Virus record (IMG/VR): IMGVR_UViG_3300047160_019164
Location: 1 to 64,000 of that record
Length of the DNA stretch: 64,000 bases
Reading direction: 5' to 3' (one strand)
Source of the DNA: a virus
Position 1 is the stretch's first letter, and each line of letters opens with the position of its first letter. A program made the position numbers and the translations under genes. A model generated the notes under the pieces. The model was not told the origin of the DNA. It searched no databases and was given only the letters and a program-made list of their open reading frames with translations. Shown piece by piece: positions 3,720 to 62,436 of the stretch.

Positions 3720-5573
3720 ATGGGTACCGAAGCGGCAGAGGTGAAGATCAAGCTGGTCCTCGACGACCAGGCTCACGCCGCTGGTCAACGTGTCGGCCAG
3801 GATATGGGGCAGATCGGCAACCAAGCCGGTCAGGCTACGACCGAGATGGAAGGTCTCGGGATGGCGAGCGAGGTGGCCATCGGCGCCGTTGCGATGGCGG
3901 CAGCAGCCGCAGCCGCAGCTGTCGCCGGTATCGTCTACGCAGCGCACGAAGGATTCGAGGCAGCTCTCAAGCAAGCCGAGCAGATCAAGACGCTTGGCGG
4001 CTCGTTGTTGATGATGAGCAACGGGGCGACGCTCAAGGAGACGACATCCGAAGCCAAGCTCCTCCACGGCGAGTTGGAGGACATGGGTGTGCAGGCAGGC
4101 GTCGCGAGTGACAAGATGGCATCGGCTTTCGAGCTGATGGCTTCGCGCTCCAATAAGCCAATCGCCGAAGTGCAGAAGCTCACCGGCGAGATGGCCAACA
4201 TCGGGCGTGTCATCCCTGGTGGCATCGACGCGCTCAGCGAGGGGTTCTCCAATATCGAAGCGGGCGTCATCAAGGCACGCAACCCGCTCGTCATGATGGT
4301 GGCGCAGACGGGCCTTCTGCACGGCAACGCGAAGCAAGTCGCCGCCGAGATGCAGAAGATGACGCCTGAGAAGCAGATGCAGATCGCCGAAGAGGCGGTG
4401 CATCGCATGTCCGACCGTGTGAAGGGGATGCCGCTCGGCTTCAACGAACTGGTCGCGTCCCTCAAGGACATGAAGGACCAGGTGCTCGAGTCGCTCGGTG
4501 GGCCGATTCTCGATGCGGTCACGCGCGTGATGGGCGACGTGCGCTCGTTCTTCATGGCGCACCAGACGCAGATCATGGAGGTCGCCGAGGCCATCGGCAC
4601 ACGCATCGGCGAATTCGTGACGTTCATCTCCGACTTGTTCGTCGAGATCGTCAACGTCTTTTCCGACGACTCCGACCAGGTTGGCGCTTCTATCGAAGAC
4701 GCGATGGAGTGGGCGGCGGACCAGTGGGACAGCATCAAGGACAACGCGCACGCGCTGGCGCAAACGTTCAAGGACATCATCGACGCCTGCAACAAGATCC
4801 TCGAAGTCGCGAAGACGGTCGCAGACATTGCGAACCCGATGGTGATGTTCGGGCTCGAGTCCGACGCGAAGATCCTCAAGAAGATGGTCGGTGGTAGTGG
4901 CGACAAGGCCGACGTGAACGGTGTGCAGCTCTCCGGTGAACAAGAGACCGCATACGAGCGGGCGGCGAAGAAGTTCGGTCAGATGAACATCGACACCTCC
5001 AAGCTCGACAAGGCCGAAGCCAAGTTCCGAGCCGCGGCGAAGGAGAGCGGCGTCGCAGCCGACGACATCGACAAGCTCGTCAACTCGCTCTACGCAGCGC
5101 ACCAGACTGCGATTGAGACGCACGGTGGTGGGAAGTTTGACGCAGCGGCGAACATGAGCGATTCAGTCAAAGCGGCCGAAGCCTTCAAGGCTACGTGGAT
5201 CGCCGCCGCGAAGGCTCACGACGTCGAGCTGATGAAGTACGGCGCCTCCGTCCTCGAGCACTCGGCGATGTTGTCTGACGAGTTGCGTGCCTCGGGCATC
5301 ATCGTGAGCGAGGGGATGGAAGACTTGGGGAGCTACGTGAAGGACAAGGCTCTCAAGTCCGCCATCAGTGACAAGATGAAAATCAACATGTCGGCGTTGG
5401 ACGAAGCCGCCAAGGCACATGCAGTGAACTTCAACGGCGGACAGACCTTTCACATCAAGCAAGACTTCCGCGACCAAGACCCCGATCGGGTCGCGTTGGT
5501 CTTCCAACGCGATATCAAGAACGCGGCGCTCAATCGCAACCAATCGAAGATGGCGACCGCCTTTGGTCTGTAA
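3720..5573 (+). CDS. Tape measure protein
   Basis: 617 aa, helical, Ala/Met-rich, directly after the chaperone. Confidence 0.8.
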   Translation: MGTEAAEVKIKLVLDDQAHAAGQRVGQDMGQIGNQAGQATTEMEGLGMASEVAIGAVAMAAAAAAAAVAGIVYAAHEGFEAALKQAEQIKTLGGSLLMMSNGATLKETTSEAKLLHGELEDMGVQAGVASDKMASAFELMASRSNKPIAEVQKLTGEMANIGRVIPGGIDALSEGFSNIEAGVIKARNPLVMMVAQTGLLHGNAKQVAAEMQKMTPEKQMQIAEEAVHRMSDRVKGMPLGFNELVASLKDMKDQVLESLGGPILDAVTRVMGDVRSFFMAHQTQIMEVAEAIGTRIGEFVTFISDLFVEIVNVFSDDSDQVGASIEDAMEWAADQWDSIKDNAHALAQTFKDIIDACNKILEVAKTVADIANPMVMFGLESDAKILKKMVGGSGDKADVNGVQLSGEQETAYERAAKKFGQMNIDTSKLDKAEAKFRAAAKESGVAADDIDKLVNSLYAAHQTAIETHGGGKFDAAANMSDSVKAAEAFKATWIAAAKAHDVELMKYGASVLEHSAMLSDELRASGIIVSEGMEDLGSYVKDKALKSAISDKMKINMSALDEAAKAHAVNFNGGQTFHIKQDFRDQDPDRVALVFQRDIKNAALNRNQSKMATAFGL

Positions 5574-21115: not shown

Positions 21116-22645
21116 ATGCGAAAGCGAAGCGAGGCGAAGCCCCCCACTGGCGTCGCAAAAGAACTACCCAAGGTCGATAGCGCACCGAAGAAAGAAGAAC
21201 CGAAGGAGGTCGTGGTCCGACACGACCCGGTCAACGAGCAAGTGGTGTTCGCCGCTGCACTGGTCGACAAGACCGTGCGCGATAAGCTTGCGGATCGATT
21301 GCAGCCGGACCACTTCCTCGTTCCGATGCACAAGACAGGATGGAAGGGTGTTCAAGAGCTGCACCATCGCAAGCTCGAATTCGACGCGGCGACGTTTCAG
21401 CAGATCGTCGGGAGCGACTCGTTCGACGTCAACTACTTGGCACAGCTCGTCGACGCGCGGCCGTATGCGCCGGCCAATCTCGAATTCCACGTCGAGACGC
21501 TCTTGTGGGACAAGGCGCGGTACACGGCGTCGACGGGGCCCATCGCGTCGCTCATCGACGCTATCAAGGACCCGCGCGAAACGCCCGAACGCGTCAAGGC
21601 GCTTGCGCGCCAAGTGCCCGAGTCGTTGGAAGGGTACAAGGACCGCTCCTTCCTGCACGATGGACGCACGCTCGTGATGTCGCAGATGGACGATATCCGT
21701 GAGCGGCGCCGTGGGCGCGCGCACTTCCCCTTCGGCATCGATGGACTCGACTACTTCGAGCCCATCGAAGGCGAGAAGCTCAAGAAGCGACTCATCCCCG
21801 GTGCAGCACCGAAGAAGGTGACCGTCGTCGTGGGCACCAGTGGTAGTGGAAAGAGCACCCTTTGCGCCAACTTCGTGCTCGGCCTGCGGCGGATGAAGCG
21901 CCGTGGGCTCGTGGGTGCGTGGGAGATGAACGGTGGCACGACGCTGGAGTTGTGCGCTGCTATCGAGGAAGGGATCTCGCTTGTCGATCTGCGGACGGGC
22001 GCCATTACCGACGAGGAAGAGCAGCGGATGGAAGCACAGATGCTCTCCATCACCGAGACGGTGATGTTCATGAGCAACCCCTTCCACCGCAAGCGCGGCG
22101 AGAAGAGCAGCAACGAGCGAAACCTTGACTTGCTCCAGGGTTACATCGCCGATAGCGGATGCGAGTGGGTCATCCTCGACTTGTGGCGCCGCGCGCTGCG
22201 CAAGATTGACCCCGAAGAGGAAGAGCAAGCGCTGGTGCGTCAACAGGCAATGGCTGAGGAGACCAATACGCATCACATCCTCGTTCAGCAGCTACGCAAC
22301 AAGGATCTCGAGGCGCGGCAGGACAAGCGCCCAACGCGCGAGTCCATCAAGGGTTCGGGTGCGTGGATCGAGATCGCCGACACCATTCTTGGATGCCATC
22401 GGCCGGCGCTGTGGAAGAACATCGAGGACACCTCTATGGAGGTGTTCGTGTTGAAGCAACGCTTCGGGAAGTGGCCACTCGGTATCGAGCTGGATTGGAA
22501 CGGTGAGTACGGCAAGGTGCAGGGTGGGAAGAGCATTCCGTACGAGCCTCCGGACGGCGAGAGCAGCACCAACGCAGTTGACGGTGCGATGGCAGCACCG
22601 AAGACCGGCGGGAAGAAGCCGTGGAGTCGTGGACGGCGCGTCTGA
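21116..22645 (+). CDS. DnaB-like replicative helicase
   Basis: N-terminal EQVVFAAAL...PDHF, Walker A GTSGSGKS, EM, ILD, QL.....RP....KGSG..E.AD, KQRFG motifs. Confidence 0.9.
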   Translation: MRKRSEAKPPTGVAKELPKVDSAPKKEEPKEVVVRHDPVNEQVVFAAALVDKTVRDKLADRLQPDHFLVPMHKTGWKGVQELHHRKLEFDAATFQQIVGSDSFDVNYLAQLVDARPYAPANLEFHVETLLWDKARYTASTGPIASLIDAIKDPRETPERVKALARQVPESLEGYKDRSFLHDGRTLVMSQMDDIRERRRGRAHFPFGIDGLDYFEPIEGEKLKKRLIPGAAPKKVTVVVGTSGSGKSTLCANFVLGLRRMKRRGLVGAWEMNGGTTLELCAAIEEGISLVDLRTGAITDEEEQRMEAQMLSITETVMFMSNPFHRKRGEKSSNERNLDLLQGYIADSGCEWVILDLWRRALRKIDPEEEEQALVRQQAMAEETNTHHILVQQLRNKDLEARQDKRPTRESIKGSGAWIEIADTILGCHRPALWKNIEDTSMEVFVLKQRFGKWPLGIELDWNGEYGKVQGGKSIPYEPPDGESSTNAVDGAMAAPKTGGKKPWSRGRRV

Positions 22646-22677
22646 GCTGCCAATCCTCGAGAAGAACAGGAAGCAAC

Positions 22678-23631
22678 GTGCCCAAGAAGCTCGACATTCC
22701 AAAGCTCCTGCACGCACTCGGAATCGAAGCAACGCAAAGAGGTCGTGAGTGGGTCGCCCTCTGCCCGAACCCGAAGCATCACGATCGGCACCCAAGCTGG
22801 CGTATCAAGGACTCGCCACTTTCAAGCAAGCACGGGTTCCACAAGTGCCACCCGTGCGGCTTCGGTGGTGGGCCAGCGGAGTTGGTGCGCGTGGTGCGCG
22901 ACTTCGCCGAGATATCGAGTGCGCTCCAATGGCTCAAGGACTTCCGCAAGGGTGAGCAGGAAGAAGAGCAGGTCGACGCCTTCCGCTGGGAGACGATGAG
23001 CCTGACCAAGCGTGCGTTCGTGCTGCCGCCCGAAGTGGTGGTCGAGGAGCTGAGCGAGTGGCCTTCGGTCATCCGCGAGTACGCGCAATTGCGCGGCATC
23101 ACCGAGGAGCAGGTCGAGCGTTACGGCATTGGGTATGCGGTGTTTGGCAAGCTCGCCGGACGCATCGTGCTTCCGGCACGCGACGTTCACGGTGCACCAC
23201 GCAATTACACATCGCGTTCGTTCGTTGGTCACCAGAAGCGCTACCTCGCCGCTGACATCTCCGAGAAGCCAGACTTGGGGTGCATGTTCGGTGAGCAGTT
23301 CTGGCCTCCCACCGCACGGCGCCGTGCGGTGGTCGTTCTGGAAGGCGCCATCAACGGGCTGACGGTGGATCGGGCTGTTCCCGAGCTTCCGTTTGGCGTC
23401 ATCGATGGCAGCGAGCCACGACCGGCGCACTTCATGAAGCTGGCGACCTTTCCACAGGTCTACATCCTGACCGACCCCGACAAGGCCGGAGCCAAGGCTG
23501 CGGAGACGCTCGCCATGGGGCTCGGTCGGCATTCCATCGTGACTCGTGTTACTTTGCCTCCAGGAGTAGATGCACAGGCCGCTGGCGACGCCAAGGTGAA
23601 GGAGTTGTTAGAGCCATGCCTCGCCCACTGA
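22678..23631 (+). CDS. DnaG-like primase (zinc finger + Toprim)
   Basis: CPNPKHHD..PS...CHPCG zinc finger; LEG and DPDKAG Toprim motifs. Confidence 0.88.
   Translation: MPKKLDIPKLLHALGIEATQRGREWVALCPNPKHHDRHPSWRIKDSPLSSKHGFHKCHPCGFGGGPAELVRVVRDFAEISSALQWLKDFRKGEQEEEQVDAFRWETMSLTKRAFVLPPEVVVEELSEWPSVIREYAQLRGITEEQVERYGIGYAVFGKLAGRIVLPARDVHGAPRNYTSRSFVGHQKRYLAADISEKPDLGCMFGEQFWPPTARRRAVVVLEGAINGLTVDRAVPELPFGVIDGSEPRPAHFMKLATFPQVYILTDPDKAGAKAAETLAMGLGRHSIVTRVTLPPGVDAQAAGDAKVKELLEPCLAH
23309..23332. repeat. 24-bp palindrome copy 6 (inside primase, TARRRAV)
   Basis: Perfect copy, in frame, just before the Toprim VVVLEG. Confidence 0.97.
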
Positions 23632-24968: not shown

Positions 24969-25096
24969 AAGTCCACCGCACGGCGCCGTGCGGTGGACTT
25001 TTTCGTATGAGAATCCCTCACGAAAAAAGAAATCGTCAGGGGCTCGGACGATTTCATGTTGCACAGGGATGCAATGCGGCTTATTGTTCTTCTCAC
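24969..25096 (+). promoter_or_regulatory. Promoter cassette copy A (palindrome copy 7 at 24973-24996, two inverted repeats, sigma70-like promoter)
   Basis: TTGCAC 25059-64, 17-bp spacer, TATTGT 25082-87; near-identical to 50869-50995. Confidence 0.85.
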
Positions 25097-43584: not shown

Positions 43585-44114
43585 GCAAAGTGAAGGGGAA
43601 CGGCGGCGAGCGCGAGGTGGCAGCGCTCATCCAACCATGGTGGTCGAAGGTCGAACCGGGTGCCACCTTCGTTCGTACGCCGCTCTCTGGTGGATGGGGC
43701 AAGACGCGCGAAGTGCGCGCCGGCTTCAAAGCAAGCGGCGACCTGATGACCACCGCGACGCAGTTTCCCTTCACCATCGAAGTGAAGCGTCGCGAAAAGT
43801 GGACGTTGGAGCGTCTTCTCGCTGGCAAGGCGAGCCCCGTGTGGCCGTGGTGGAAGCAAGCGCAGACGCAAGCCGACGAGATGGGGCTTACTCCACTGCT
43901 CTGGATTCGAAAGAATCGGCAGCCGTGGCGCATCATCATGCCGCACTCGTTCGCCTTGCTGAAGGGGCTCATCACAGCGCGCTCGCGAGTGCATGTGTGG
44001 ACCTGCTCACCGCATCTCGTCGCGGATCTGTTCGGTGAGCAGGTGCCCGCGATGATCGCGGCGGAGGACTTCCTCAAGTGCGACCCGAAGCGCTTCCTAC
44101 TGACCAAGTGGTGA
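43581..44114 (+). CDS. PD-(D/E)xK Holliday junction resolvase
   Basis: KGNGGEREVA, RTPLSGG, GDL, IEVKRRE. Confidence 0.8.
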   Translation: MSKVKGNGGEREVAALIQPWWSKVEPGATFVRTPLSGGWGKTREVRAGFKASGDLMTTATQFPFTIEVKRREKWTLERLLAGKASPVWPWWKQAQTQADEMGLTPLLWIRKNRQPWRIIMPHSFALLKGLITARSRVHVWTCSPHLVADLFGEQVPAMIAAEDFLKCDPKRFLLTKW

Positions 44115-44140
44115 GTTACAACAAGGTTGGAGGCGCGACT

Positions 44141-44860
44141 GTGAAGAAGAAACTCGAGACTACGAAGACCCCCGAGGCGGCAGCCGTCTATCTCGACCCC
44201 AAGAAGCTCGTCCCCAATCCCAAGAACCCACGTGTCAACGACGCGGTGGTTGACGACATCGTCAAGTCAATCGACAAGTTCGGGTTCACAGTGCCCATCG
44301 TCGTGCGCAAAGCGAACATGATGGTGGCGGCAGGGCATACGCGGTTGAAGGCGGCACTCAAGATGGGGCTCAAGGAAGTCCCGGTTCGCATCCTCGACAT
44401 CACGCAACGTCAGCTCGAAGCACTCACCATCGCCGACAACAAGCTCGGCGAGAAGGCCACGTGGGACGAGACGCTCTTGAAGGAGCAGCTCCAAGGGCTT
44501 CTCAAGGACGATTTCGACTTGAACATGCTCGGATTCGACGGGACCGAGTTGGCAAGCCTTCTCGCCGAGTCGCCTTCGGTGCTTGGTGGCGACTCCATTC
44601 CCGCCGAGGCAGCCAACGGCAAAGGCATGACGGACCCCGGCGCGCCGCAGGGCGATCCGTCGCACGTGCGCATGGTGCAACTCTTCCTCGACGAGACGAC
44701 GCACCCGGTGTTCCTCGAGCGCTGCAAGGTGCTCGGAAAGAAGTGGGGTCTCGACAACGTCACGAAGGTCGTGATGAAGGCGCTCGAGGAGATCGCCAAG
44801 GAACCGAACAAGAAGGGCGAGAAGACCGATGTTCACGGTGCAGCTTCGAACGCAGGTTGA
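44141..44860 (+). CDS. ParB N-terminal-domain protein
   Basis: PNPKNPR, SIDKFGFTVPIVV, AGHTRLKAA, IADNKL. Confidence 0.9.
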   Translation: MKKKLETTKTPEAAAVYLDPKKLVPNPKNPRVNDAVVDDIVKSIDKFGFTVPIVVRKANMMVAAGHTRLKAALKMGLKEVPVRILDITQRQLEALTIADNKLGEKATWDETLLKEQLQGLLKDDFDLNMLGFDGTELASLLAESPSVLGGDSIPAEAANGKGMTDPGAPQGDPSHVRMVQLFLDETTHPVFLERCKVLGKKWGLDNVTKVVMKALEEIAKEPNKKGEKTDVHGAASNAG

Positions 44861-45728
44861 CGAGAAGCTCATCGCGTCACGCCATGGTGGCGATGTCACC
44901 GAAGAGGACATCGCGTTCAAGCCCACGAGCGACATCGCCGTCTACAAGTCCAACGGCCAGCCGCTCCTCTTCGTCTTCAAGCGCGCGGTGTCGCAGAAGG
45001 AGATCGAGCTGGCGCTCCCTGGCTTGAACGCCATGCGGATCACGAGCCCGAGCTTCAAGAGCAATCGCAAGACGTATGGTGGTGGGCCGGCATACCGCAA
45101 GAAGGAAGACGGCACCGTCTCCAACACGACGTACGGCAAGAGCATCAGCAGTGCCATTGCTGGCTACTTCGATCGGTACCCACGTTTCCCGTTCTGTCGG
45201 CAGACGGCGTTCACCGCGAAGGAGGTCGAGAAGTGGCGCGACCTCCAACCGATGATCCACACGTGCGCGAAGCTGTTCAAGGAGCACCTCCCCGAGCGCT
45301 ACGAGAACCAGGACAAGGTCGCGCGCAAGGTGCATCCCGACTTCCAGATCGCAGGGACGCCGTTCAGCACGCTCACGGTCAATCACAACGCGGTGGCCAA
45401 GCTTCACCAGGACAAGGGTGACCTTCCTGACGGTTTCGGTGTGATGACGGTCATCAAAGAGGGCTCGTACGACGGCTTCTCGTTGGTGTTCCCGCGCTTC
45501 CGTGTAGGAGCTGAGCTGGAAACTGGCGACGTGATCCTGTTCGACCCGCACGAGTTTCACGCCAACGTGCCGCCGCGCAATTGCTCGGACGATTACCACC
45601 GCATCAGCGTGGTGATGTACTTCAGGAAGAAGATGATCGAATGCGGCAGTGCTGCGGACGAGATGAGGCGCGCACAGAAGGCGCGCGGCTCGCTCGACAT
45701 CGTTGCGAACGAAGGAGCGACCGAATGA
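44829..45728 (+). CDS. TET/JBP-family 2OG-Fe(II) dioxygenase
   Basis: GYFDR..RFPFCR.TAFT, FSTLTVN, HQD.GD (HxD), H..HAN, RISVVMYFRKKM. Confidence 0.88.
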   Translation: MFTVQLRTQVDEKLIASRHGGDVTEEDIAFKPTSDIAVYKSNGQPLLFVFKRAVSQKEIELALPGLNAMRITSPSFKSNRKTYGGGPAYRKKEDGTVSNTTYGKSISSAIAGYFDRYPRFPFCRQTAFTAKEVEKWRDLQPMIHTCAKLFKEHLPERYENQDKVARKVHPDFQIAGTPFSTLTVNHNAVAKLHQDKGDLPDGFGVMTVIKEGSYDGFSLVFPRFRVGAELETGDVILFDPHEFHANVPPRNCSDDYHRISVVMYFRKKMIECGSAADEMRRAQKARGSLDIVANEGATE

Positions 45729-46819
45729 ACGTCGCGGTATGGCGCTACGGGTTGCCGTTGCAGGTGGAGGCACAGAGCACGGTCGGCGGTGGCAAGATTG
45801 CTGGCGAGCTACTCAAGACGCTCAAGAAGCAAGGTCACAACGTCACGGTCGTGGGTCCGGTGTCGAAGGGTGTCGAGCAGTGGCTCGCGGACGCTGGCAT
45901 CGCTCACAAGCGCACCAACGACTTGAGCACGATGGATGCTGCGGTGGTGCTCACGGGTCCGTTCAATGTGATGTACGGAGACGGTGTCTTCGACACCTAT
46001 CGCCGACTCGCGACATTGAACGGCAAGGCCATCTATGCGCAGTGGGACGTCGCGTTGCCGTTCCACTTCGCCGCGGACCGAAGCACCAAGTTCGCAGCTG
46101 ACTGTCACGTGCGCACTCCACACCTCTTGAAGAACAAGGAGTGGTTCCTCTTCACGCAACTCGAAGAGGAACACGTGCGTGCTAGCAAGGCCGCGAGCAC
46201 GATGTATGCGACGGCACCTTTCAAGCACGTGCGCTGCCTTTTCGAACTGGTCGAGTTGGAGAAGGAGTTGCTCAAACCGGTGAAGAACCCGGTGCCGGCG
46301 ATCGCTTACTTTGGTAGCGACCGCCCCGGTCGCATGCGTGAGCTACTTCGTTGGTTCGGAGCACCCGGTTCGCCGCCCGTGCACCTCTATGGGCAGTGGA
46401 GCGAGAAGTCGCTCGCCGAGTTGATGAAGAACCAAGGCTTCGAACCCAACATCGAGTACCGCGGCAAGATCCCCGAGGGCCGGGTGACCGAAGTGTTGAA
46501 TCAGTACGTGATGACCTTCTACATGGCGGACCCTGCGTACGTGAAGACCGACTTCATCGCGCAGCGGTTCTTCGAGAACGCCATCGCCGGCGTCGCGACC
46601 TACTACAGCGACAAGATTCAGCCGTCGGTGCGGAAGACCGTGCCGAGTGGGTTGGTGCTCGAGGACCCGAAGCAGCTCAAGGAAGCGTTCCAACACGTGG
46701 TGTCGATGCCGTTCAAGAAGCGCCTTGGGCTCGTGCACCAGCACCAGGAAGCGATCCTGAGCTTCGCGAAGAGCCATCCGCACAGCATGCGCAACGCGTT
46801 CGAGCAGGTGCTCTCGTGA
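45725..46819 (+). CDS. T4 beta-glucosyltransferase-like DNA glycosyltransferase (GT-B)
   Basis: YFGSDRPGR and GKIPEGRVTE...ADPAY..DFIAQRFFE resemble, from memory, T4 BGT GGSFRSG.R and GKIPMNMVSE...GDKNYNDNFITLRVWE. Confidence 0.75.
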   Translation: MNVAVWRYGLPLQVEAQSTVGGGKIAGELLKTLKKQGHNVTVVGPVSKGVEQWLADAGIAHKRTNDLSTMDAAVVLTGPFNVMYGDGVFDTYRRLATLNGKAIYAQWDVALPFHFAADRSTKFAADCHVRTPHLLKNKEWFLFTQLEEEHVRASKAASTMYATAPFKHVRCLFELVELEKELLKPVKNPVPAIAYFGSDRPGRMRELLRWFGAPGSPPVHLYGQWSEKSLAELMKNQGFEPNIEYRGKIPEGRVTEVLNQYVMTFYMADPAYVKTDFIAQRFFENAIAGVATYYSDKIQPSVRKTVPSGLVLEDPKQLKEAFQHVVSMPFKKRLGLVHQHQEAILSFAKSHPHSMRNAFEQVLS

Positions 46820-46821
46820 CG

Positions 46822-47505
46822 ATGGCGAGTTGCACGGTCGTCATCCCGGCGCACAACGAAGAGGACACCATTGGTGGACTCGTGGAGTGCGCGCTCGTGC
46901 ACGCGGACCGCGTCATCGTGGCGAACGACTCGAGCACCGATCGAACGGAACAAGTGGCGGAGGAAGCGGGTGCAATCGTCGCTCTGGTTCCGCGTGAGCG
47001 TCGTGGCTTGGTGGGCGTCTACTCGTTCGGGCTCCGGGTCGCCGTTGCTCTCCACCGCACGGCGCCGTGCGGTGGACGTGGGGCGTACGTCTGCGAGATG
47101 GACGCGGGCGGCAGCCACGACCCGCACGAGCTACCCAAGTTCTGGAAGGCTCTCGACGAAGGCGCCGACATCGCCGCGGGCTGTCGCTTTGCGTACGGGG
47201 GCGAGTACCTCGGGTCGTGGCAGCGGAAGAGCCTGAGCTACTTCGGCACCAAGCTCACCAACATCGTGCACGGCACCAAGTGGTGCGACGCGACGAGTGG
47301 CTTCGTGGCGTACAGGTCATCGTCGCTCGATGCGCTCTTGCAGGTCCCCTACAAGTCGACGGGTCACTACTACCAGACGGAGATGCGTCTGCGCGCGCAG
47401 GCCATGGGCATGAAGACGACGGAAGTGCCCATCACGTACAGGAACAGCGGCTCGTCGCTCAATTGGCGTAGCATCCGTGAGGCATTGTCCTTGGTGATGC
47501 GATAG
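46822..47505 (+). CDS. GT2 (DPM1-like) glycosyltransferase
   Basis: VVIPAHNE, NDSSTDRT, EMDAGGSHDP, DATSGF, EVPI. Confidence 0.9.
   Translation: MASCTVVIPAHNEEDTIGGLVECALVHADRVIVANDSSTDRTEQVAEEAGAIVALVPRERRGLVGVYSFGLRVAVALHRTAPCGGRGAYVCEMDAGGSHDPHELPKFWKALDEGADIAAGCRFAYGGEYLGSWQRKSLSYFGTKLTNIVHGTKWCDATSGFVAYRSSSLDALLQVPYKSTGHYYQTEMRLRAQAMGMKTTEVPITYRNSGSSLNWRSIREALSLVMR
47052..47075. repeat. 24-bp palindrome copy 13 (inside GT2, read as HRTAPCGG)
   Basis: Perfect copy in a different reading frame from the TARRRAV copies. Confidence 0.97.
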
Positions 47506-47516
47506 GAGAAGTCACA

Positions 47517-48158
47517 ATGGCGCGAAAGATGGCAGCACACATTGGAGCGACGCCGGTCGTCGTTCATGACACGACGCTCGTCGACGTCGAAAAGCTCAAC
47601 CCCGCGCCGTACAACCCGCGCAAGATCAAACCGGCCATGCTCTCGGCGTTGAAACAGAGCATCAAGGAACAGGGGTTCATTCACCCCATCGTCGTGCAGA
47701 AGAAGGGTATGGTCATTATCGCTGGCCACCAACGAGTGAAGGCGTTGCGTGAGCTGTGCAGCGAAACGGGGCAGCCGCTCCCCAAGATTCCCGCCATCAT
47801 CCGCGACATCGGCGATCGAGTCGCCAAGAAGCTCAACATCACGCTGAACCGCGTCGGTGGTGAATTCGATGCGGGGCTCCTCGGTGACTTGTTGCGTGAC
47901 CTGCAAGACGATGTGCGCCTGACGACCGACGAACTGACTGGCATGGGCATCTCGGCCGACGAGCTGGACGGGCTTCTCAAGCTCGACGATCCGCCGCCCG
48001 AGAACGAAGAGATTCCAACCTTCGGACGCTCGGTCACCATGTCGCTTTCGTTCAGCGACACCAAGATGCGTGACCGCGTGAAGAAGAAGCTCGAGGAGCG
48101 TTCGCGTGTGGAAGGGAAGAAGAGCGGCGAGATCGTCGACAGCCTGATGCGGCGATGA
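47517..48158 (+). CDS. Second ParB N-terminal-domain protein
   Basis: PAPYNPRKI, SIKEQGFIHPIVV, AGHQRVKA, LNITLN. Confidence 0.9.
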   Translation: MARKMAAHIGATPVVVHDTTLVDVEKLNPAPYNPRKIKPAMLSALKQSIKEQGFIHPIVVQKKGMVIIAGHQRVKALRELCSETGQPLPKIPAIIRDIGDRVAKKLNITLNRVGGEFDAGLLGDLLRDLQDDVRLTTDELTGMGISADELDGLLKLDDPPPENEEIPTFGRSVTMSLSFSDTKMRDRVKKKLEERSRVEGKKSGEIVDSLMRR

Positions 48159-50112
48159 AGCCCAAAGAGGCAACTCCGCTGGTGCGCTTCTTCCGTCGAA
48201 TGGCGGAGAAGTTGTTCGGTACGTGGAAGGAAGGCATTGAGCCACCTGACCGGCTTGGCGATATGGTCATTACCTTCGCCAACATGCACCCACACGCTAC
48301 TCGGCAGGATTGGGTTGTCTTCGCGACGTTTCACGCACGCGAAGCGTACCGAAGTGGTTACTTGCGCGGCGTCGAGTACGCCGAGCGCGAAGACGATGAA
48401 CCGGGCCTCGACCCCGATGTCTTGATGGACGCGATGAATGGCCCTTCGTGGCGCGGACGGCCCGTGGGACCGAATCTCGAGCCGCCCGCCGAAGACCTGC
48501 ACGATTGGGAGTGGTATCCGACCGAAGGTCCCACGCTGGAAGGCGACGTGGCTGCACGCGTGCGTGAGTACGAAGACGAGAACCACATTGCGTGGGAGCA
48601 GCTCACCAAGATGGAGAGTGCCGATCAGGAGCGTTCGAAGCGCTGAGCGGCATAAGGGGAGTGGAGGTGCACGATGTCCGAAGGAGACCCGTTGCAGTGG
48701 GCTCGCGCCCTCGGTGCCGGAACTGCGATGGTGATGCACATTCCCACGGACACCGTGGCGAAGGTGAAGGCGTTCTACGACGGTGTGACCACGAAGTTCA
48801 TCAGCCCCATCACCAACGAGCCCGTCAACGGGCCGGTGCTGGTGATGGAGGACGGGAACAGCTTCATGGCAGAGGACGAGAAGTCCTTTCACCGTATGAC
48901 CATGCAACAAGCGCAGTTCTATCGCACCATGCAGCGCGTAATCGCCAACACGCTGCGCGAAGCCGCGCAGCTCCTCAAGTCGCTCGGTATTCCGGTCGAC
49001 GTCGGCGTTTCGTTGTTGGTTGCTACGCTCAAGGCGCAGCTTCGTGTACTCGAAGCCAAGCCCGAAGCCATGCCGCAGACGCTTCCACCCGAGGAGATGC
49101 CCTGATGCCGCCCAACACCAACGTCCCCGTCGCCGCCCACAACGCGCTCAAGCAAGTGATCGACATGTATGGTCAGCTCCTCGTCGAACAGGAGCATAGG
49201 TTCATGATGGAGCGCGCGCAGTTGGAGCTTCAGATCAAGGACATCCACCACACGAACAACGAAGTGACCGCGCGCTGTCTCGAGATCGAGGGGAAGAACC
49301 AGAAGTTGGTCGCCACGAACGAAGGGCTCGCGGCCGACTTCGTGAAGATGACCCAACTGATTCAAGACCTGAAGGGGAGGGTCGACGAGCTGACGGAAGA
49401 GAACGATGCACTGAAGCGCGAGAATGAACGCTACGTACCGTCGCACCTGCGTCGAGAATCCCCTTCCCACGGCAATTACGGGAACGTGGGATCGGGTGGA
49501 TGATGGATGGTCCCAAGGCACTGCCGCCCTTCGTTATCGACGCGGCGCTAGGAAGTGGTGCAATCGATCTCCAGAAGTGGCGCACGTGGATCGATATCTA
49601 CGGTCCGATGTGCGCCGCGTGGCTGGTGAAGCACTTCAGTAAGACCATCAAGCAAGCGGGTCACTTCAAGGTCTTCGTGCCACGACTCGTCGATCTGTCC
49701 TTGCAGAGCAAGCGCTTCCGCTGGTTCAAGCTCGCACTCGCGTACATCCGCAAGTCCACGCGCTGGCGTGTAATCGTGCGTGACGTGTGGCACAAGGACA
49801 CCGACCGCGGCAAAGAATTCGACTTCAAGTGGATGTTGTCGAGGCATCGTCGTGGCTGAAGGTCGCTGGAAAGAGAAGTGGATCCCGCCGTGGGCTCCAC
49901 ATGTCGTCGGTGAGTACGACATGCCGCGCGAATTCCGCGAGGACGGGCTTCCCGAAGCGCAGTGGGTCGAGATGACCTGCACGCACGCGGAATGCGCAAG
50001 CCGGCCGAAGCCGCATTACCGAGTCCCGTGCACCAGTGGCAACGTCCGACAGCACGTCGCGCGGTTTGCACTGGTGCACATGCACAAGGATCCATTCGAA
50101 GGAGGGAAGTGA
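48155..50112 (+). other. Five hypothetical ORFs (48155-48646, 48674-49105, 49105-49503, 49500-49859, 49852-50112)
   Basis: Tiled with stop/start overlaps; no family recognised. Confidence 0.55.
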
Positions 50113-50756
50113 TGAGCGGGAAGTTCGTGGTGATAGAGGGTATTGATGGGTCTGGGAAGACGAGCTTGGTGAAGCTGATGGCGGCGGAGCTGCGGAAGCG
50201 TGGGTTCACCGTGCACGAGACGTACGAGCCCACGCACGGTGAGATCGGCGCGTTGGCGCGCAAGGCGTTCAGTGCGGAGTCGAAACACATCGACGACCCG
50301 CTTGCGTGGGCGAAGCAGGAGATGCTCCTCGCGGCCGATCGCATGCACCATCTGTTTGGTGAAGTGAACCCGGCGCTCGAGACGCACGACTACGTCATCT
50401 GCGATCGCTACGTCGGCAGCGGGTACGCGTACGGCATGGCGTCGCGTCCGAATTCCGTCTCCACGTTGAGCGCGCATGGGTTCCTCTGCGGCATGTATGC
50501 GTTCGCGTGGAAGCCGGATTACTGCATCCTCGTCGACGTGCCGATCGAAGTGGCAGTGGAGCGCATGGCCAAGCGCACGGACAAGACGCGCTACGACGTC
50601 GACGTGGAGTTGCTCAAGCGGGTGCGTAGCATCTACAACAGCGAAGCCGCAGAGCATCGGCACTGGTACACCATCCGTTCCGGTGCCATGACGGCCGAGC
50701 AGACATGTCTCGCAGCGCTCGATCGCACGGGCATCGGCCTGCGCAGAACCTCGTAA
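50112..50756 (+). CDS. tmk: Thymidylate (dNMP) kinase
   Basis: FVVIEGIDGSGKT, EP, AADR..H, VICDRY, KPD motifs. Confidence 0.9.
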   Translation: MSGKFVVIEGIDGSGKTSLVKLMAAELRKRGFTVHETYEPTHGEIGALARKAFSAESKHIDDPLAWAKQEMLLAADRMHHLFGEVNPALETHDYVICDRYVGSGYAYGMASRPNSVSTLSAHGFLCGMYAFAWKPDYCILVDVPIEVAVERMAKRTDKTRYDVDVELLKRVRSIYNSEAAEHRHWYTIRSGAMTAEQTCLAALDRTGIGLRRTS

Positions 50757-50863
50757 CCACCGCAAGCGAAAACGTCGGAGTGACGCGAGCGCGGTCCCTA
50801 TAAGGTGGGGACTGTCTGTGGCAGGTCGGGCGCGAAACGGCGCTAGCTAGCGGCCTGCCGCAC

Positions 50864-50995
50864 CGAAAAAGTCCACCGCACGGCGCCGTGCGGTGGACTT
50901 TTTCGTATGAGAATCCCTCACGAAAAAGGAAATCGTCAGGGCTCGGACGATTTCATGTTGCACAGGGATGCAATGCGGCTTATTGTTCTTCTCAC
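50864..50995 (+). promoter_or_regulatory. Promoter cassette copy B (palindrome copy 14 at 50873-50896, extended to 42 bp; sigma70-like promoter)
   Basis: TTGCAC 50958-63, 17-bp spacer, TATTGT 50981-86; cgaaaaagt-core-actttttcg. Confidence 0.85.
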
Positions 50996-51028
50996 GGTGA
51001 ACACGACGGTGACGCAAGGAGGTGTGTG

Positions 51029-51253
51029 ATGGACATGCGACGTAGCCAAGCGGCAAAGGTGCTGGATAGTGTGCGCACGATGTTGGCCCAACGTGAGAGC
51101 CCGGAGAAGATCGAGAGGTATCTGTCGCTCCAGTTTGGCATCGAAGCCCTCGTCAAGTGCAGTGGCGAAGCGCACTCCAACGCGCACATCGACAATTGCG
51201 GTTGCTGTGCGCCGCGGTGGGGTTGGGTGGGCGATACCGTCAACATCAAGTAG
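51029..51253 (+). CDS. Small early hypothetical protein (Cys/His-rich)
   Basis: AAGGAGG RBS; first ORF after the promoter; its stop overlaps the ribozyme. Confidence 0.65.
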   Translation: MDMRRSQAAKVLDSVRTMLAQRESPEKIERYLSLQFGIEALVKCSGEAHSNAHIDNCGCCAPRWGWVGDTVNIK

Positions 51254-51304
51254 GTCGAAACGGGCACCAGCCCGTCCGCACGTGATGCGTGCGCTGACGA
51301 GACC
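51253..51304 (+). ncRNA. Type II hammerhead ribozyme 1
   Basis: GGTC-GAAA-CGGGC(acca)GCCCG-TC-CGCACG(tgatg)CGTGCG-CTGACGA-GACC: complete core, three perfect stems. Confidence 0.93.
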
Positions 51305-51318
51305 AGGAGCAAGTAGCC

Positions 51319-51555
51319 ATGGACACCAGCAAGATCGCGATCGGGGAAGTCGTGAAGGCCACCGCCACCACGTATACGGGCAAGATGTACGGCGGCGGGC
51401 TCATCGCCGGGCAGCTCTACAAGGTGGTTGATATGAGTCACCTACGCTGTACGTTCGGCGGTCACACCACGTTGTTCGTGCGCTCCGTCGACCGCAGCAT
51501 CGACCGCGGCATCATTCCGGTGCGGAACGCGCACCTGGTGTTGGAGGTGGCGTGA
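51319..51555 (+). CDS. Small hypothetical protein between the ribozymes
   Basis: AGGAG RBS immediately after ribozyme 1. Confidence 0.65.
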   Translation: MDTSKIAIGEVVKATATTYTGKMYGGGLIAGQLYKVVDMSHLRCTFGGHTTLFVRSVDRSIDRGIIPVRNAHLVLEVA

Positions 51556-51836
51556 TGATCAACCGTTATACGGTCGAGAACGCGGTGGTCGTTGCCAGCC
51601 TGCTCACGGAGCAGGGCTTCTTCGCGCATGTCTACTCGGACCAGGAGTCGGTCGTTTGCACCGATGCGCCAGTAGCTAAGGTGCAAACGACCGAGCGCAA
51701 GGCGTTCGAGCCGATCGAAGTGGCGTACTACACCGGGACGTGGAAGCGGCAGGTGTGCAAGACGCCCGCATCGTTCCGCAAGCTGGTGGACCGTTGCATC
51801 GACGAGGGCTGGGAAACGCGTACGCGCAAGGCGTGA
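51555..51836 (+). CDS. Small hypothetical protein between the ribozymes
   Basis: GGAGG RBS, TGATG overlap. Confidence 0.65.
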   Translation: MINRYTVENAVVVASLLTEQGFFAHVYSDQESVVCTDAPVAKVQTTERKAFEPIEVAYYTGTWKRQVCKTPASFRKLVDRCIDEGWETRTRKA

Positions 51837-51840
51837 TGTA

Positions 51841-51902
51841 GGTCGAAACCACCGCACGGCGCCGTGCGGTGGTCCGGGCGTAAGGCGCCCGCTGACGAGA
51901 CC
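51841..51902 (+). ncRNA. Type II hammerhead ribozyme 2; stem III is palindrome copy 15 (51849-51872)
   Basis: GGTC-GAAA-[CCACCGCACGGCGCCGTGCGGTGG]-TC-CGGGCG(taagg)CGCCCG-CTGACGA-GACC. Confidence 0.93.
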
Positions 51903-51919
51903 ACGAGGAGCAAGCCGAC

Positions 51920-52291
51920 ATGAGGACCACGAGCTTCCACGGCCACGCGCTCAACCTCCCGGCCGGCCGACTCGGCCGCACTCAGCGCTACGCGCTGGAG
52001 CACATCTACGAAGAGGGACAGGACTCGACCGATCGTGCCCTCCACCTCCACGGTCGGGCAGCGCGCTACGCTAGCCGCTACGCCACCGCGCTCGCGAACA
52101 TCGTCGACGCGAACCCGCACCTCTTCGCCGGCGGTCCGTTCGGACCGCGCGGCGGCCGCGGGTACAAGTGGATTTGGCACGGACCGATCCAGGCACCCCG
52201 GTGCACCGCGCACGAGGACTGCCGCGCGTGCGTCGACGTCGCGCTCGCGTGCGATCAAGAAGCCACGCGGCATAACCCAAACAAGCGCTGA
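51920..52291 (+). CDS. Hypothetical protein
   Basis: GAGGAG RBS after ribozyme 2. Confidence 0.6.
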   Translation: MRTTSFHGHALNLPAGRLGRTQRYALEHIYEEGQDSTDRALHLHGRAARYASRYATALANIVDANPHLFAGGPFGPRGGRGYKWIWHGPIQAPRCTAHEDCRACVDVALACDQEATRHNPNKR

Positions 52292-52319
52292 GGCGCAGCA
52301 ACCCAAAGGAGCACAGAAG

Positions 52320-53276
52320 ATGCCCACCAAGAAGCCGTTCGATCGTGACAAGTGGCTCGAGGAGAAGCGCGCCAAGGTGCAGGACGCGAAGGAGATGCTG
52401 GAGACTGGGCTCACTGCACTGCGCACCAGCGACGAGTGGAAAGCGTGCATGACTGCCATCGCGAAGAACGCGCGCCTGCGTTACAGCGTTACCCGCTACA
52501 GTTTCGGAAACCAGATGATGCTCGCCTGTCAGTGCGCTGGTGCGAACCGACCGCAGCCCACGAGCGTCGCTACCTTCAAGGCGTGGCAGCGCGTCGGTCG
52601 CAGCGTGAAGAAGGGCGAGAAGGGGATGTTCATCCTCACGCCGAAGCCCTGGAAGCGCGAGGAGAAGCAAAGCGACGGCACCTCCAAGGAGCTGCGCGGC
52701 ATGTCGTTCGGCGTGGCGCACGTGTTCGACATCGCGCAGACCGAAGGTGACGAGCTGCCTGTACCGCCGCGCGTGACGGTGGACATCGAAGATGCCGCCA
52801 CCTTCAGCGCGGACGTGGAGACGCTGCGCGAAGTGGCGCTCGCCATCGACGGCGAACCGGTGAGCGATATCGAGATCCGTGCCAACCAACCGGGCGACCC
52901 GACCAACGCGCAAGGCTGGTACGTCATCTCCACCAAGGCGATCGTCGTGGTGGAGCACCGCAGCCGCGCTCACATGTTCAAGACGCTCGTCCACGAGGTG
53001 GCGCACGCGTTGCTCCATCCCAAGGGCGACCACCACTCTACGCCCGAGCGCGAGGTCGAAGCTGAATCGACGGCGTTCATCGTCTGCCAGGTGCTCGGTC
53101 TCAGTACCGACGCCTTTAGCTTCCCGTACGTCGAGTCGTGGGCGCAGCGCGCGAGCTGCACGTCGAACGACATGATCGCCAAGTGCGGCGACCGCATCAC
53201 CAAGGCGTCGCATACCATCTTGGATGCGCTCCTCGGCAAGCAAGTCGAAGAGCCCAACGAGGAAGAGGCTGCGTAA
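52320..53276 (+). CDS. ArdC-like antirestriction / ssDNA-binding protein with metallopeptidase domain
   Basis: YSFGNQMML, ATFKAWQRVGRSVKKGEKG, VFDIAQTEG, HEVAH, EVEAES.A. Confidence 0.85.
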   Translation: MPTKKPFDRDKWLEEKRAKVQDAKEMLETGLTALRTSDEWKACMTAIAKNARLRYSVTRYSFGNQMMLACQCAGANRPQPTSVATFKAWQRVGRSVKKGEKGMFILTPKPWKREEKQSDGTSKELRGMSFGVAHVFDIAQTEGDELPVPPRVTVDIEDAATFSADVETLREVALAIDGEPVSDIEIRANQPGDPTNAQGWYVISTKAIVVVEHRSRAHMFKTLVHEVAHALLHPKGDHHSTPEREVEAESTAFIVCQVLGLSTDAFSFPYVESWAQRASCTSNDMIAKCGDRITKASHTILDALLGKQVEEPNEEEAA

Positions 53277-55984
53277 TGGCTCGCTGGTCGCTCAAGCGGC
53301 TCAAGGAGCACGGCTTCGATAAGAGCACGAGTGACCGCGTTGGACGTCTCACGGTGGGCTGCTCGCAGTGCGCCGTGAGCGTCATCAACGGCACTCCGTG
53401 CCACGAACACGACTGCCCTAATTGGGTGCGGCGTAACAAGCTCGGACAGGAAGTGGAGGACTAGATGGCCACCGACATCGAAGAGGTCGACGAGAATCGT
53501 TTGGAGACGTGGATCTTGCGCTTCAAGAAACACCGCATCCTTGCGCGCCAAGGCTCCTACGAAGCGCGCAAGTTCTACGAGCGCATGGCGCGTCGCGACG
53601 AGATCATGATTCGCACCTTCATGGCGGAAGCGTCGTGAAGCCGGTCCAGATCGGCGAAGAAGACTATCACGACCATGTCGAAGGGAGTGACGGTATCTGC
53701 CTGAGCTGTGGCGAGTGGAAGTACGGTGACTGCGAGCCCGACGCCGAGAACTACAGGTGCGACGAGTGCGGTGCGATGGAGGTGATGGGCGTCGAGATGG
53801 CGATGGTGGCCGGTCACATTCAACTAGTCGAAGATGACTCGTGAAGCCCGTGGGTGAAGGAGCGAGTGATGGTGGTGCGCGAATTCAAAGAGCTGCACGA
53901 GGGCTTCGTCTTCTACAAGTGGATGAGCGTGGCGGTCGCCAATCGCCGCATCAAGTGGCAATGGGTCAAGCACGAAGTGCGCGCACGCTTCGACCCTGAA
54001 GAAGTGCCCTGGGAGAAGGGTCAACCGCCGGTCATCTCGCACCACGTGGTGTACCGCTACTGGTCTCCCAAGCGTGGATGGCACTACGAGCATGACGAGG
54101 AGTGGCTGATGTCGGTCAACACCATGATGAGTCTCTCGGCCTTCAAGCCGGGGAAGGACCCGTGGGGGAAGGACTTGGACAAGTGAAGATCATGTTTCAT
54201 CCCAACAAAGGTCCGGCGCGCAAAGCCAAGCTTCCTTACACCGATGCGGACTACTGTGTTGTCGATGGTGAGTGCCCTTACTGCAAAGCGATGCCATTCC
54301 ACGCCGCAGGTGTGAAGGGCACGATGGTGAAGGGGCACGCCACGCTCACGAGTGATGCCGGTTGTATCGGCTGCAAGGTCGTCACTGGCAAGTTGGTCGT
54401 GAAGGTCAACACGCTGTTTGGTATCGAAGAAGACGAACGTGTCATGCGCAGTGGAGTGAGGATCTACTGATGAAGCACACACTCAAGGTCAAAGACCTCA
54501 ACAACCTCCGGCTATCGGAAGCCACGATGGCTGTGTGCGATGCGGCCGAGAAGCTCAAGCAAGCGGCACGCACCTACGCGGATAAGGTTCCCAAGAACGA
54601 ACCGAGCGGGTTGCCCTCAAACGTCGACTTCGTTGACCAAAGCCCCGAAGGGAAAGCATTGGAGGCTGCGGCGCGTGACTTCTCGCTCTGGTACGACGCA
54701 CTGGCGCACGTGAAGGTGCGGGAGAAGCTCTGATGGCACGCAAGATCGCGGTCATATCACCGGCACTGGTCGATATCCTTCAAGACCCCGGTCGCCAGCG
54801 TGAGTCGCTCGTCGGCCCACTGTGGGATGCGATGAGCCTCGGTTGGTGCACGTGTCACACGTTCCGAATCGCTGGTAATGATTGGATCGCGGTGTTGACG
54901 AAGAAGGGCATCGCGGCACGTAGCCAGCACGTACAGGACAAGACCATCTTACTCTCGAAGTCGTGGCACTTCGTGAAGCAACCCAATGGGCTCCTCGCAT
55001 GGTGGTCAGACGCGACCGCCACTTTCGAAGAATTCAACATCGGTGTGCAGGAAGCCGAGGAATACGCCTGCGAGCAGGTGTCGCTTTCGCGCAGCATCGG
55101 CAAGCGCGTAAGCACTGTGATGCTCCAAGAGGCGCTCGACGACGTCCTACGTGGCTTTCCCTTCCAAGAGGCCAGAATCGAGAGCAAAGACGGGTTGGTG
55201 CGTTGGCGGAATTGCCTGCGGCTCATGCGAGGCATTCACGGTTTCGAACACGTACGTAGAGCAGAAGAACAAGCTCGATGAGCTTCCTTGCCTATTGTTG
55301 TGACGCTCGCCAGGTGCCCGAAGTGTTTTCTACACGAGCGGCGGCAGAGGCGTACTTGCGGCAGTGGGCTTGCTATCCCGATCCTGGTCGAATTGTTGAG
55401 GAATGCCCGATGACTTGGCGCTTTCATACAACGTGTGTGCAGAGTGATTACCTGTCTATTACGACCATGCAGGATAAGGCGGTGTCGATTACGTATCGCA
55501 CCATGCGCAGGAAGCTCGGTAAGGTGCTCACTGACGTGGAAGAGATGTTGGGCTACGACACGGGTCGTGGGAAGCGTGGGCTGCGAATGAAGAACGACTT
55601 CGCCGTGTCGTTCTACAAGTCCACCTACCAGGGGAAGCCGTGCTTGTACTTCGTGTGGTCGCACATCGAGCACATCTTCTTGGAGGATTGAGGCATGGCA
55701 ACGCGGACGTACATGCGCGGGGGAGAGGTCGTCACCTTCGAGACCAAGGTGCTGTTCAGCACCACGTACATCGACATGAGCGGCCTTCGCGTCCTCACGC
55801 ACGCGCGCCAAGGCCGTTACATGCAGCCGACGCGTGAAGCGGCCGAAGAGGCGCTCAAGAACCTCCTCGAGAACAACACGGAGCAGCGGCTCGCCGACAT
55901 CTACGGTCCGCAGTCCATCGGTACCTTCCGTGTCGACGCGTTCGAGTGTTACGAGCACGGCGACCCTATTCACCTCTTGGAGAA

Positions 55985-62333: not shown

Positions 62334-62357
62334 CCACCGCACGGCGCCGTGCGGTGG
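62334..62357. repeat. 24-bp palindrome copy 18
   Basis: Perfect copy 3 nt before the tRNA. Confidence 0.97.
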
Positions 62358-62360
62358 CAT

Positions 62361-62436
62361 TGCGCGGTAGAGCAACGGCAGCTCGCTAGGGGTTCATACC
62401 CTGGAAGTAGGAGGTTCGATTCCTCCCCGCGCGACC
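62361..62436 (+). tRNA. Atypical tRNA, fMet-like body with anticodon loop GTTCATA
   Basis: Acceptor TGCGCGG/CCGCGCG, D arm GAGC/GCTC, anticodon stem CTAGGG/CCCTGG, T arm GGAGG-TTCGATT-CCTCC. Confidence 0.8.

Follow-up and report, generated by a model that had tools for sequence, protein, structure and literature searches.

The locus and its surroundings

The window analyzed here is the first 64 kb (64,000 nucleotides) of a 92,463-bp virus record with a G+C content of 62%, which represents an uncultured soil phage (G000). An ORF scan placed all likely genes on the plus strand. Two stretches with the features of type II hammerhead ribozymes, termed HH1 and HH2, are each preceded by a stop codon and followed by a GGAG ribosome-binding site, and their predicted cut sites, 598 nt apart, bracket a pair of small genes with no match in Pfam. 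Downstream of HH2 are a further small gene and a gene encoding an ArdC-like anti-restriction protein (Table 1). The terminator-like hairpin listed in the table lies just upstream of this operon and the same module is found at 24973. A simple scan of the plus strand for promoters and terminators gave nothing useful.

The region has few close relatives in the collections searched. GenBank phages gave no match to positions 50000-54000 in near or distant DNA searches, and the best GenBank phage relatives of the helicase were only ~27% identical. The closest ArdC homologues were 56-61% identical; single-protein scans of viral contigs returned no relative for the 94-aa upstream protein or for the ArdC-like ORF. 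The genome was present in many soil metagenome runs at low depth, and the sequencing runs listed for the HH2 stretch included no RNA runs. One soil-metagenome contig (run X1, 51679-52014) was identical to the genome across HH2, although it may come from the same sample as the genome assembly. No variants of HH2 were found in the soil-metagenome contigs, in which coverage was shallow.

Table 1. Positions of features in the window, numbered from its first nucleotide.
Feature	Position	Strand	Remarks
ParB_N cassette	44078-48158		ParB_N, TET/JBP dioxygenase, two unassigned ORFs, second ParB_N (Pfam)
Terminator-like hairpin	50865..50904	+	Palindrome copy as G+C-rich stem between A-run and T-run
HH1, paralogous type II hammerhead	51253..51304	+	14-nt stem III hairpin; predicted cut 51276/51277
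Two small genes	51319-51555 and 51552-51836	+	GC3 0.87 and 0.83
HH2, conserved A and GGUC (stem II 5' strand)	51840..51844	+	Pairs with GACC 51899-51902 in the MFE fold
HH2, core GAAA	51845..51848	+	G12 A13 A14 A15.1
HH2, palindrome	51849..51872	+	Perfect, 24 nt; stem III positions 15.2 to 16.2
HH2, U16.1 and C17	51873..51874	+	Hammerhead consensus position; predicted cut 51874/51875
HH2, stem I hairpin	51875..51891	+	6 bp and 5-nt loop UAAGG
HH2, core CUGACGA and GACC (stem II 3' strand)	51892..51902	+	CUGACGA at 51892-51898
Small gene downstream of HH2	51905..52291	+	RBS GAGGAG, ATG at 51920
ArdC-like anti-restriction gene	52320-53276	+	3' of the small gene with ATG at 51920

Structure of HH2 and HH1

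The elements of HH2 (51841-51902) follow one another in the order GGUC, GAAA, 24-nt palindrome, UC, 17-nt hairpin, CUGACGA and GACC. This is the topology of a type II hammerhead, with stems I and III capped by loops and stem II (GGUC/GACC) open. The residues of the hammerhead core, C3 U4 G5 A6 N7 G8 A9, G12 A13 A14, the A15.1-U16.1 pair and H17, are all present. An initial reading made from the sequence only had located a dispersed 24-bp palindrome exactly between GAAA and UC (TC in the DNA) of HH2, and inspection confirmed this location. The same reading held that the palindrome supplies the C-G pair adjacent to the core together with the G of the GUC site. This was also found to be correct, as the first C and last G of the palindrome are at positions 15.2 and 16.2, and the cleavage triplet is composed of the last base of the palindrome followed by U and C. 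The statement that the palindrome forms the whole of stem III applies to positions 15.2 to 16.2 but does not extend to the A15.1-U16.1 pair, which lies outside the palindrome.

The minimum free energy and centroid structures predicted for the 62-nt HH2 RNA were both the three-way junction (-36.5 kcal/mol, z = -3.5). The core and stem II of HH1 are identical to those of HH2, and two compensatory pairs distinguish their stem I hairpins. The palindrome of HH2 takes the place of the 14-nt hairpin in HH1, as had been proposed. The two elements also have flanks in common, GUA upstream (present in 2 of 104 members of the class described below) and GGAGCAAG downstream (present in none of the 104). Since few or none of the class members have these flanks, HH1 and HH2 are most likely local duplicates.

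Membership in a hammerhead class of uncultured phages

A pattern taken from HH1 and HH2, GGUCGAAAC...GUC...CUGACGAGACC, was found in at least 120 IMG/VR viral contigs. The 93 distinct matches with a stem I of 17-18 nt aligned cleanly and were used to build a covariance model from which the sequences of the window itself were left out. This model gave 70.6 bits for HH1, 67.1 bits for HH2 and no more than 9.5 bits for the rest of the 92.5-kb genome, the share of these scores contributed by the core being built in because the training set was fetched with the HH1/HH2 pattern. With the Rfam model RF02276 (Hammerhead_II) the scores were 25.8 bits for HH1 and 21.9 bits for HH2, both under the gathering score of 37 bits, and an initial cmscan (E <= 10) did not report HH2.

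The alignment of the 93 sequences showed 96.4% of the cells in stems I and III to be paired, with 376 double-sided changes, compared to 30-43% of cells paired in a control in which the partner was slid by 1-3 columns. Ten of the 12 pairs of these stems vary on both sides; the remaining two are fixed by the search pattern. Several features outside the pattern are common to HH2 and the class. The A preceding GGUC is invariant (93/93) and present in HH2, and stem I is 17 nt long in 85 of the 104 class members, as in HH2. The G-C closing pair and U...G loop of stem I that characterize the class are likewise found in HH2, where the loop and closing pair read GUAAGGC, tied for the commonest sequence in the class. 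A stop codon is located within 10 nt upstream in 96 of the 104 members. HH1 and HH2 are genuine members of a hammerhead class that is common in uncultured phages, and HH2 is probably an active type II hammerhead.

When the small genes neighboring HH1 and HH2 were compared by tblastn with the 120 hammerhead loci, one distant match to ArdC was obtained and nothing more. Another hammerhead of the class, with 11 differences from HH1 (compared with 51251-51305) and other flanks, was detected in the same soil samples (X1 record 2, X3 record 21 and X4 record 25). The presence of this second, different hammerhead in the same samples indicates that the class is common in the soil habitat.

Stem III as the site of the palindrome

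In the 104 distinct class members the hairpin of stem III is most often 14 nt long (range, 10-36 nt), and in approximately one-sixth of them it is at least 20 nt long. With stem I essentially fixed in length, the palindrome of HH2 thus occupies the sole position that tolerates variation in length. Moreover, the ribozyme takes up all of the space from the stop codon to the ribosome-binding site, and stem III, being the one part of it that is free in both length and sequence, is the only place that could host a 24-bp palindrome without damage. The C15.2-G16.2 pair, shown in upper case in the Rfam consensus, is kept because the palindrome has C as its first base and G as its last. Including the A-U pair, stem III of HH2 consists of 11 bp and a 4-nt loop with a predicted stability of -21.0 kcal/mol, compared to a class median of -10.8 kcal/mol; the value is equaled or exceeded in 4 of the 93 members. 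The proposal that the repeat lies where it preserves catalysis is upheld at the level of prediction, in that the core and helices are intact, the class-model score (67.1 bits) is only slightly below the 70.6 bits of HH1, and the length falls within the 10-36 nt of the class.

Stem III contained no dispersed palindrome at the other class loci (120 loci, each of at most 15 kb). Literature searches for repeats inside hammerhead stems or for perfect palindromes dispersed throughout a phage genome returned nothing on point.

The palindrome in the phage genome

The palindrome ACCGCACGGCGCCGTGCGGT, which is 83% G+C, is present in 25-26 copies in the 92,463-bp genome, from position 2629 of the window to position 90459 of the genome. 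The window contains 18 copies, compared to none expected from 100 shuffles. All 26 copies share one and the same 18-bp core. Nineteen copies are intergenic, many of them 0-3 nt past a stop codon, and 6-7 are within coding sequence, namely the genes for primase, polymerase (twice) and SbcC and small ORFs. Six coding copies are all read in the TARRRAV frame. In the primase ORF (22621-23631) the copy at 23309-23332 encodes PTARRRAV, and the alignment with relatives is free of gaps (for example DPAARHTV in G004). These results indicate that the word overwrote a segment of equal length and was not acquired as an insertion of eight codons.

The copies are more evenly spaced than expected by chance. 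The coefficient of variation (CV) of the spacing was 0.52 versus 0.95 in simulations (P = 0.0002), and the largest gap between copies was 7.9 kb versus 13.7 kb (P = 0.005). The nearest upstream copy is only 976 bp from the copy in HH2; thus, even spacing alone does not call for a site at 51849. The other 25 copies are neither flanked by GAAA or UC nor accompanied by ribozyme remnants.

Searches for the exact palindrome found none in viral contigs and none in 185,579 genomes. An otherwise unrelated, A+T-rich metagenome contig of 2.6 kb (Ga0056135_10034761; L121, 2434-2470) contains an exact 22-nt match followed by a partial copy. Two regions of the phage genome, 24973-25045 and 50873-50945, are a duplicated module in which the palindrome with AAGT/ACTT and a T-run is followed by ~45 nearly identical nucleotides. 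From its sequence this module looks like a terminator-plus-promoter cassette that opens two operons. The copy at 62334 is directly upstream of a tRNA gene (62361-62434, identified with Rfam), and the copy in the region 67519-67600 of the genome precedes a second stretch that resembles a tRNA.

Palindromes in related phages and the order of events

A 464-aa protein from the structural region has 36 relatives in IMG/VR at 48-63% identity, several of them on contigs of 84-100 kb. The 52.7-kb contig G001 is syntenic with G000 over much of its length. Related phages that have a palindrome set each have a perfect palindrome of 16-20 bp with a sequence of its own, in 9-24 exact copies: TCCTCGGAACGTTCCGAGGA in G001 (7-10 copies in 53 kb), TGGAACTCGAGTTCCA in G002 (24 copies), ACGGATGATCGATCATCCGT in G004 (17 copies) and AGATAACACCGGTGTTATCT in G008 (16 copies). 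No set was found in G005. The spacing test covered the four complete genomes G000, G002, G004 and G008, in all of which the copies were more even than chance (CV 0.46-0.57 versus ~0.93, P = 0.0001-0.012). The words of the relatives have a G+C content of 40-60%, compared to 67-71% for the genomes, and for this reason they look like half-sites of the operator type and not like strong RNA hairpins.

Considered together, the invariant core, the even spacing, the word specific to each phage, the copies within genes and the overwritten primase segment favor a reading at the level of DNA. The palindrome is most likely recognized as double-stranded DNA by a putative dimeric phage protein, as judged from these sequence features.

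In G008, 10 of the 16 copies directly precede a motif of 9-10 nt, GGACAAACC (GGACAAGCC once), for example at record positions 4253 and 54380. The motif directly adjoins the palindrome, which makes the repeat unit of that phage asymmetric, and a promoter-like signal or some other signal with a direction may form part of the unit.

No hammerhead was detected with the class model or RF02276 in 22 relatives, eight of which are at least 90% complete, while HH1 and HH2 were recovered in the control. The block of tmk, small genes and ArdC that holds the hammerheads has no counterpart in G002, G004, G005 or G008. G001 has ArdC, and its contig ends ~200 nt upstream of the ardC gene, short of the position of HH2. 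No orthologous HH2 free of the palindrome was found, and the replacement in HH2 is therefore deduced from HH1 and the class. Since relatives have palindromes and no hammerheads, and since the other 25 copies are free of ribozyme remnants, the palindrome system appears to be older than the ribozymes. The simplest history suggested by these sequences is that the palindrome system came first, after which the block with the hammerhead would have been gained, the hammerhead duplicated and one stem III replaced.

Comparison with known systems

[quoted passage not shown] 2011, PMC3088659). HH1 and HH2 resemble the type II hammerheads of that study and of RF02276 in the core, the capped stems I and III, the open stem II and the intergenic location. 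They further resemble the former in that a close pair brackets a small block of genes with an anti-restriction neighbor, which is ardA there and ArdC-like here (PMC3088659). The elements differ from the known class in that a palindrome present 26 times in the genome provides stem III of HH2 and in that the scores are below the gathering score. A pseudoknot between loop I and the 3' tail is present in most type II hammerheads (PMC3088659) and, by comparison, is not evident in HH2. Loop I of HH2 has no complement of at least 4 nt in either flank, the figures for the class being 26% versus 18.5 ± 3.8%, a marginal enrichment.

[quoted passage not shown] 2015, PMC4351075). The repeat has invariant inverted-repeat arms and a variable 3-bp center and is found in all five Cluster O genomes (PMC4351075). 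Like the palindrome described here, it is present in many invariant copies both between and inside genes (PMC4351075). The palindromes of the present phages differ in that they are perfect, are 16-24 bp long and vary among related phages, with one copy located in a ribozyme. The Cluster O repeat is the closest published parallel.

In ParB-parS systems, short palindromes at several dispersed places are read by a dimeric protein. The dispersed short palindromes of G000 are similar, and the phage encodes two proteins with ParB_N domains. Searches with tblastn (E <= 1e-4) gave no match to the ParB-like proteins in G001, G002 or G008, all of which have a palindrome set, and gave a match in G005, which is without one. 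Thus, in this crude test with five relatives, the homologues do not track the palindrome sets and a reading by ParB gains no support.

In Neisseria, DNA uptake sequences arranged in inverted pairs also act as transcription terminators. By analogy, the palindrome in HH2 may also be a DNA word placed at a site that requires or tolerates a hairpin in the RNA. The two cases differ in the organism, the length of the word and its purpose, and no ribozyme is involved in Neisseria.

Both this kind of hammerhead and evenly spaced palindromes are already known from phages, and what is new is their overlap in one element.

Interpretation of the overlap

Overall, the results are probably best explained by a real type II hammerhead and a separate, older palindrome that share one sequence in a tolerated double use. 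The palindrome in HH2 most likely represents neither a functional link nor the origin of the repeat. In the RNA the palindrome just closes stem III, and the overlap is for this reason viewed as a double use without mechanistic coupling. According to this explanation, one palindrome word would have taken over the stem III hairpin of HH2 after the local duplication that produced HH1 and HH2. HH2 would then cut an early polycistronic RNA at 51874/51875. The 3' end of the upstream RNA of two genes would carry a cyclic phosphate and be capped by the palindrome hairpin, which is very stable. The downstream RNA would have a 5'-OH end, followed first by the hairpin of stem I and then by the ribosome-binding site that serves the next gene. 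At the DNA level, the same 24 bp would be one site of the palindrome set.

It is also conceivable, though unlikely, that the palindrome acts mainly as an RNA hairpin, whether a protector of 3' ends, the stem of a terminator or a processing signal, and was recruited to HH2 so that the upstream cleavage product ends in the standard protective hairpin. The very stable hairpin formed by a word of such high G+C content, the 19 of 26 copies that are intergenic and often directly follow a stop codon, and the layout of the genes on one strand are all consistent with such a role, as are the modules at 24973 and 50873, in which an A-run, hairpin and T-run resemble a terminator, and the two copies that precede tRNA genes. 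However, a hairpin maintained only for its fold would be expected to show covariation like that of the hammerhead stems, whereas the 18-bp core is invariant. Copies within the primase, polymerase and SbcC genes and the even spacing in G000, G002, G004 and G008 are also difficult to reconcile with a role in RNA, and the words of the relatives would form much weaker hairpins.

A functional coupling, in which a factor that recognizes the palindrome as DNA or as RNA hairpin controls cleavage of HH2 or transcription through it, is considered improbable. The co-location itself is what recommends this explanation, together with the general precedent of engineered, regulated hammerheads (PMC3088659). 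On the other hand, HH1 is in the same operon without the palindrome, the other loci among the 120 have no dispersed palindrome in stem III, and the relatives have palindromes without ribozymes. More specifically, it is a little more doubtful still that the protein reading the palindrome also attaches to the hairpin of stem III or, on the DNA, stops RNA polymerase at the HH2 site. If this were true, the palindrome system would gate cleavage of an early anti-restriction operon and HH2 would be a natural hammerhead controlled by a protein.

The probability is similarly low that HH2 is a disabled relic in which the palindrome overwrote stem III and cleavage became poor, for example through misfolding or pairing between copies. 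Stem III of HH2 ranks in the top 5% of the class for stability, HH2 was missed by the first Rfam scan, and the fold predicted with flanks contains other pairings that compete with stem II, all in accord with a loss of function. These findings are countered by the presence of all 11 core nucleotides, the core-adjacent pairs and perfect stems, by changes in stem I relative to HH1 that are compensatory and not those of decay, and by the natural stem III hairpins of the class that reach 36 nt.

Finally, the suggestion that the repeat family was born from stem III of HH2 or copied through the ribozyme RNA, for which the overlap alone speaks, is hardly credible and is rejected here, as the palindrome sets of relatives differ in sequence and are found without hammerheads, GAAA/UC flanks are present at 0 of the 25 other copies, and the hammerhead region is an accessory block missing from four relatives. 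The argument in the sequence-only reading that the repeat is not an assembly artefact holds.

The preferred explanation, tolerated double use, makes HH2 a clear case from nature in which a single short sequence is used in two layers, as a palindrome site in DNA and as a ribozyme stem in RNA. It implies that stem III of a common class of phage hammerheads is free enough to accommodate foreign signals. The order of events, in which the palindrome set preceded the ribozyme, speaks against an origin of the repeat in the ribozyme. HH2 also provides a built-in test for the effect on cleavage of any protein that binds the palindrome. The wider observation is that related phages have evenly spaced palindromes of their own.
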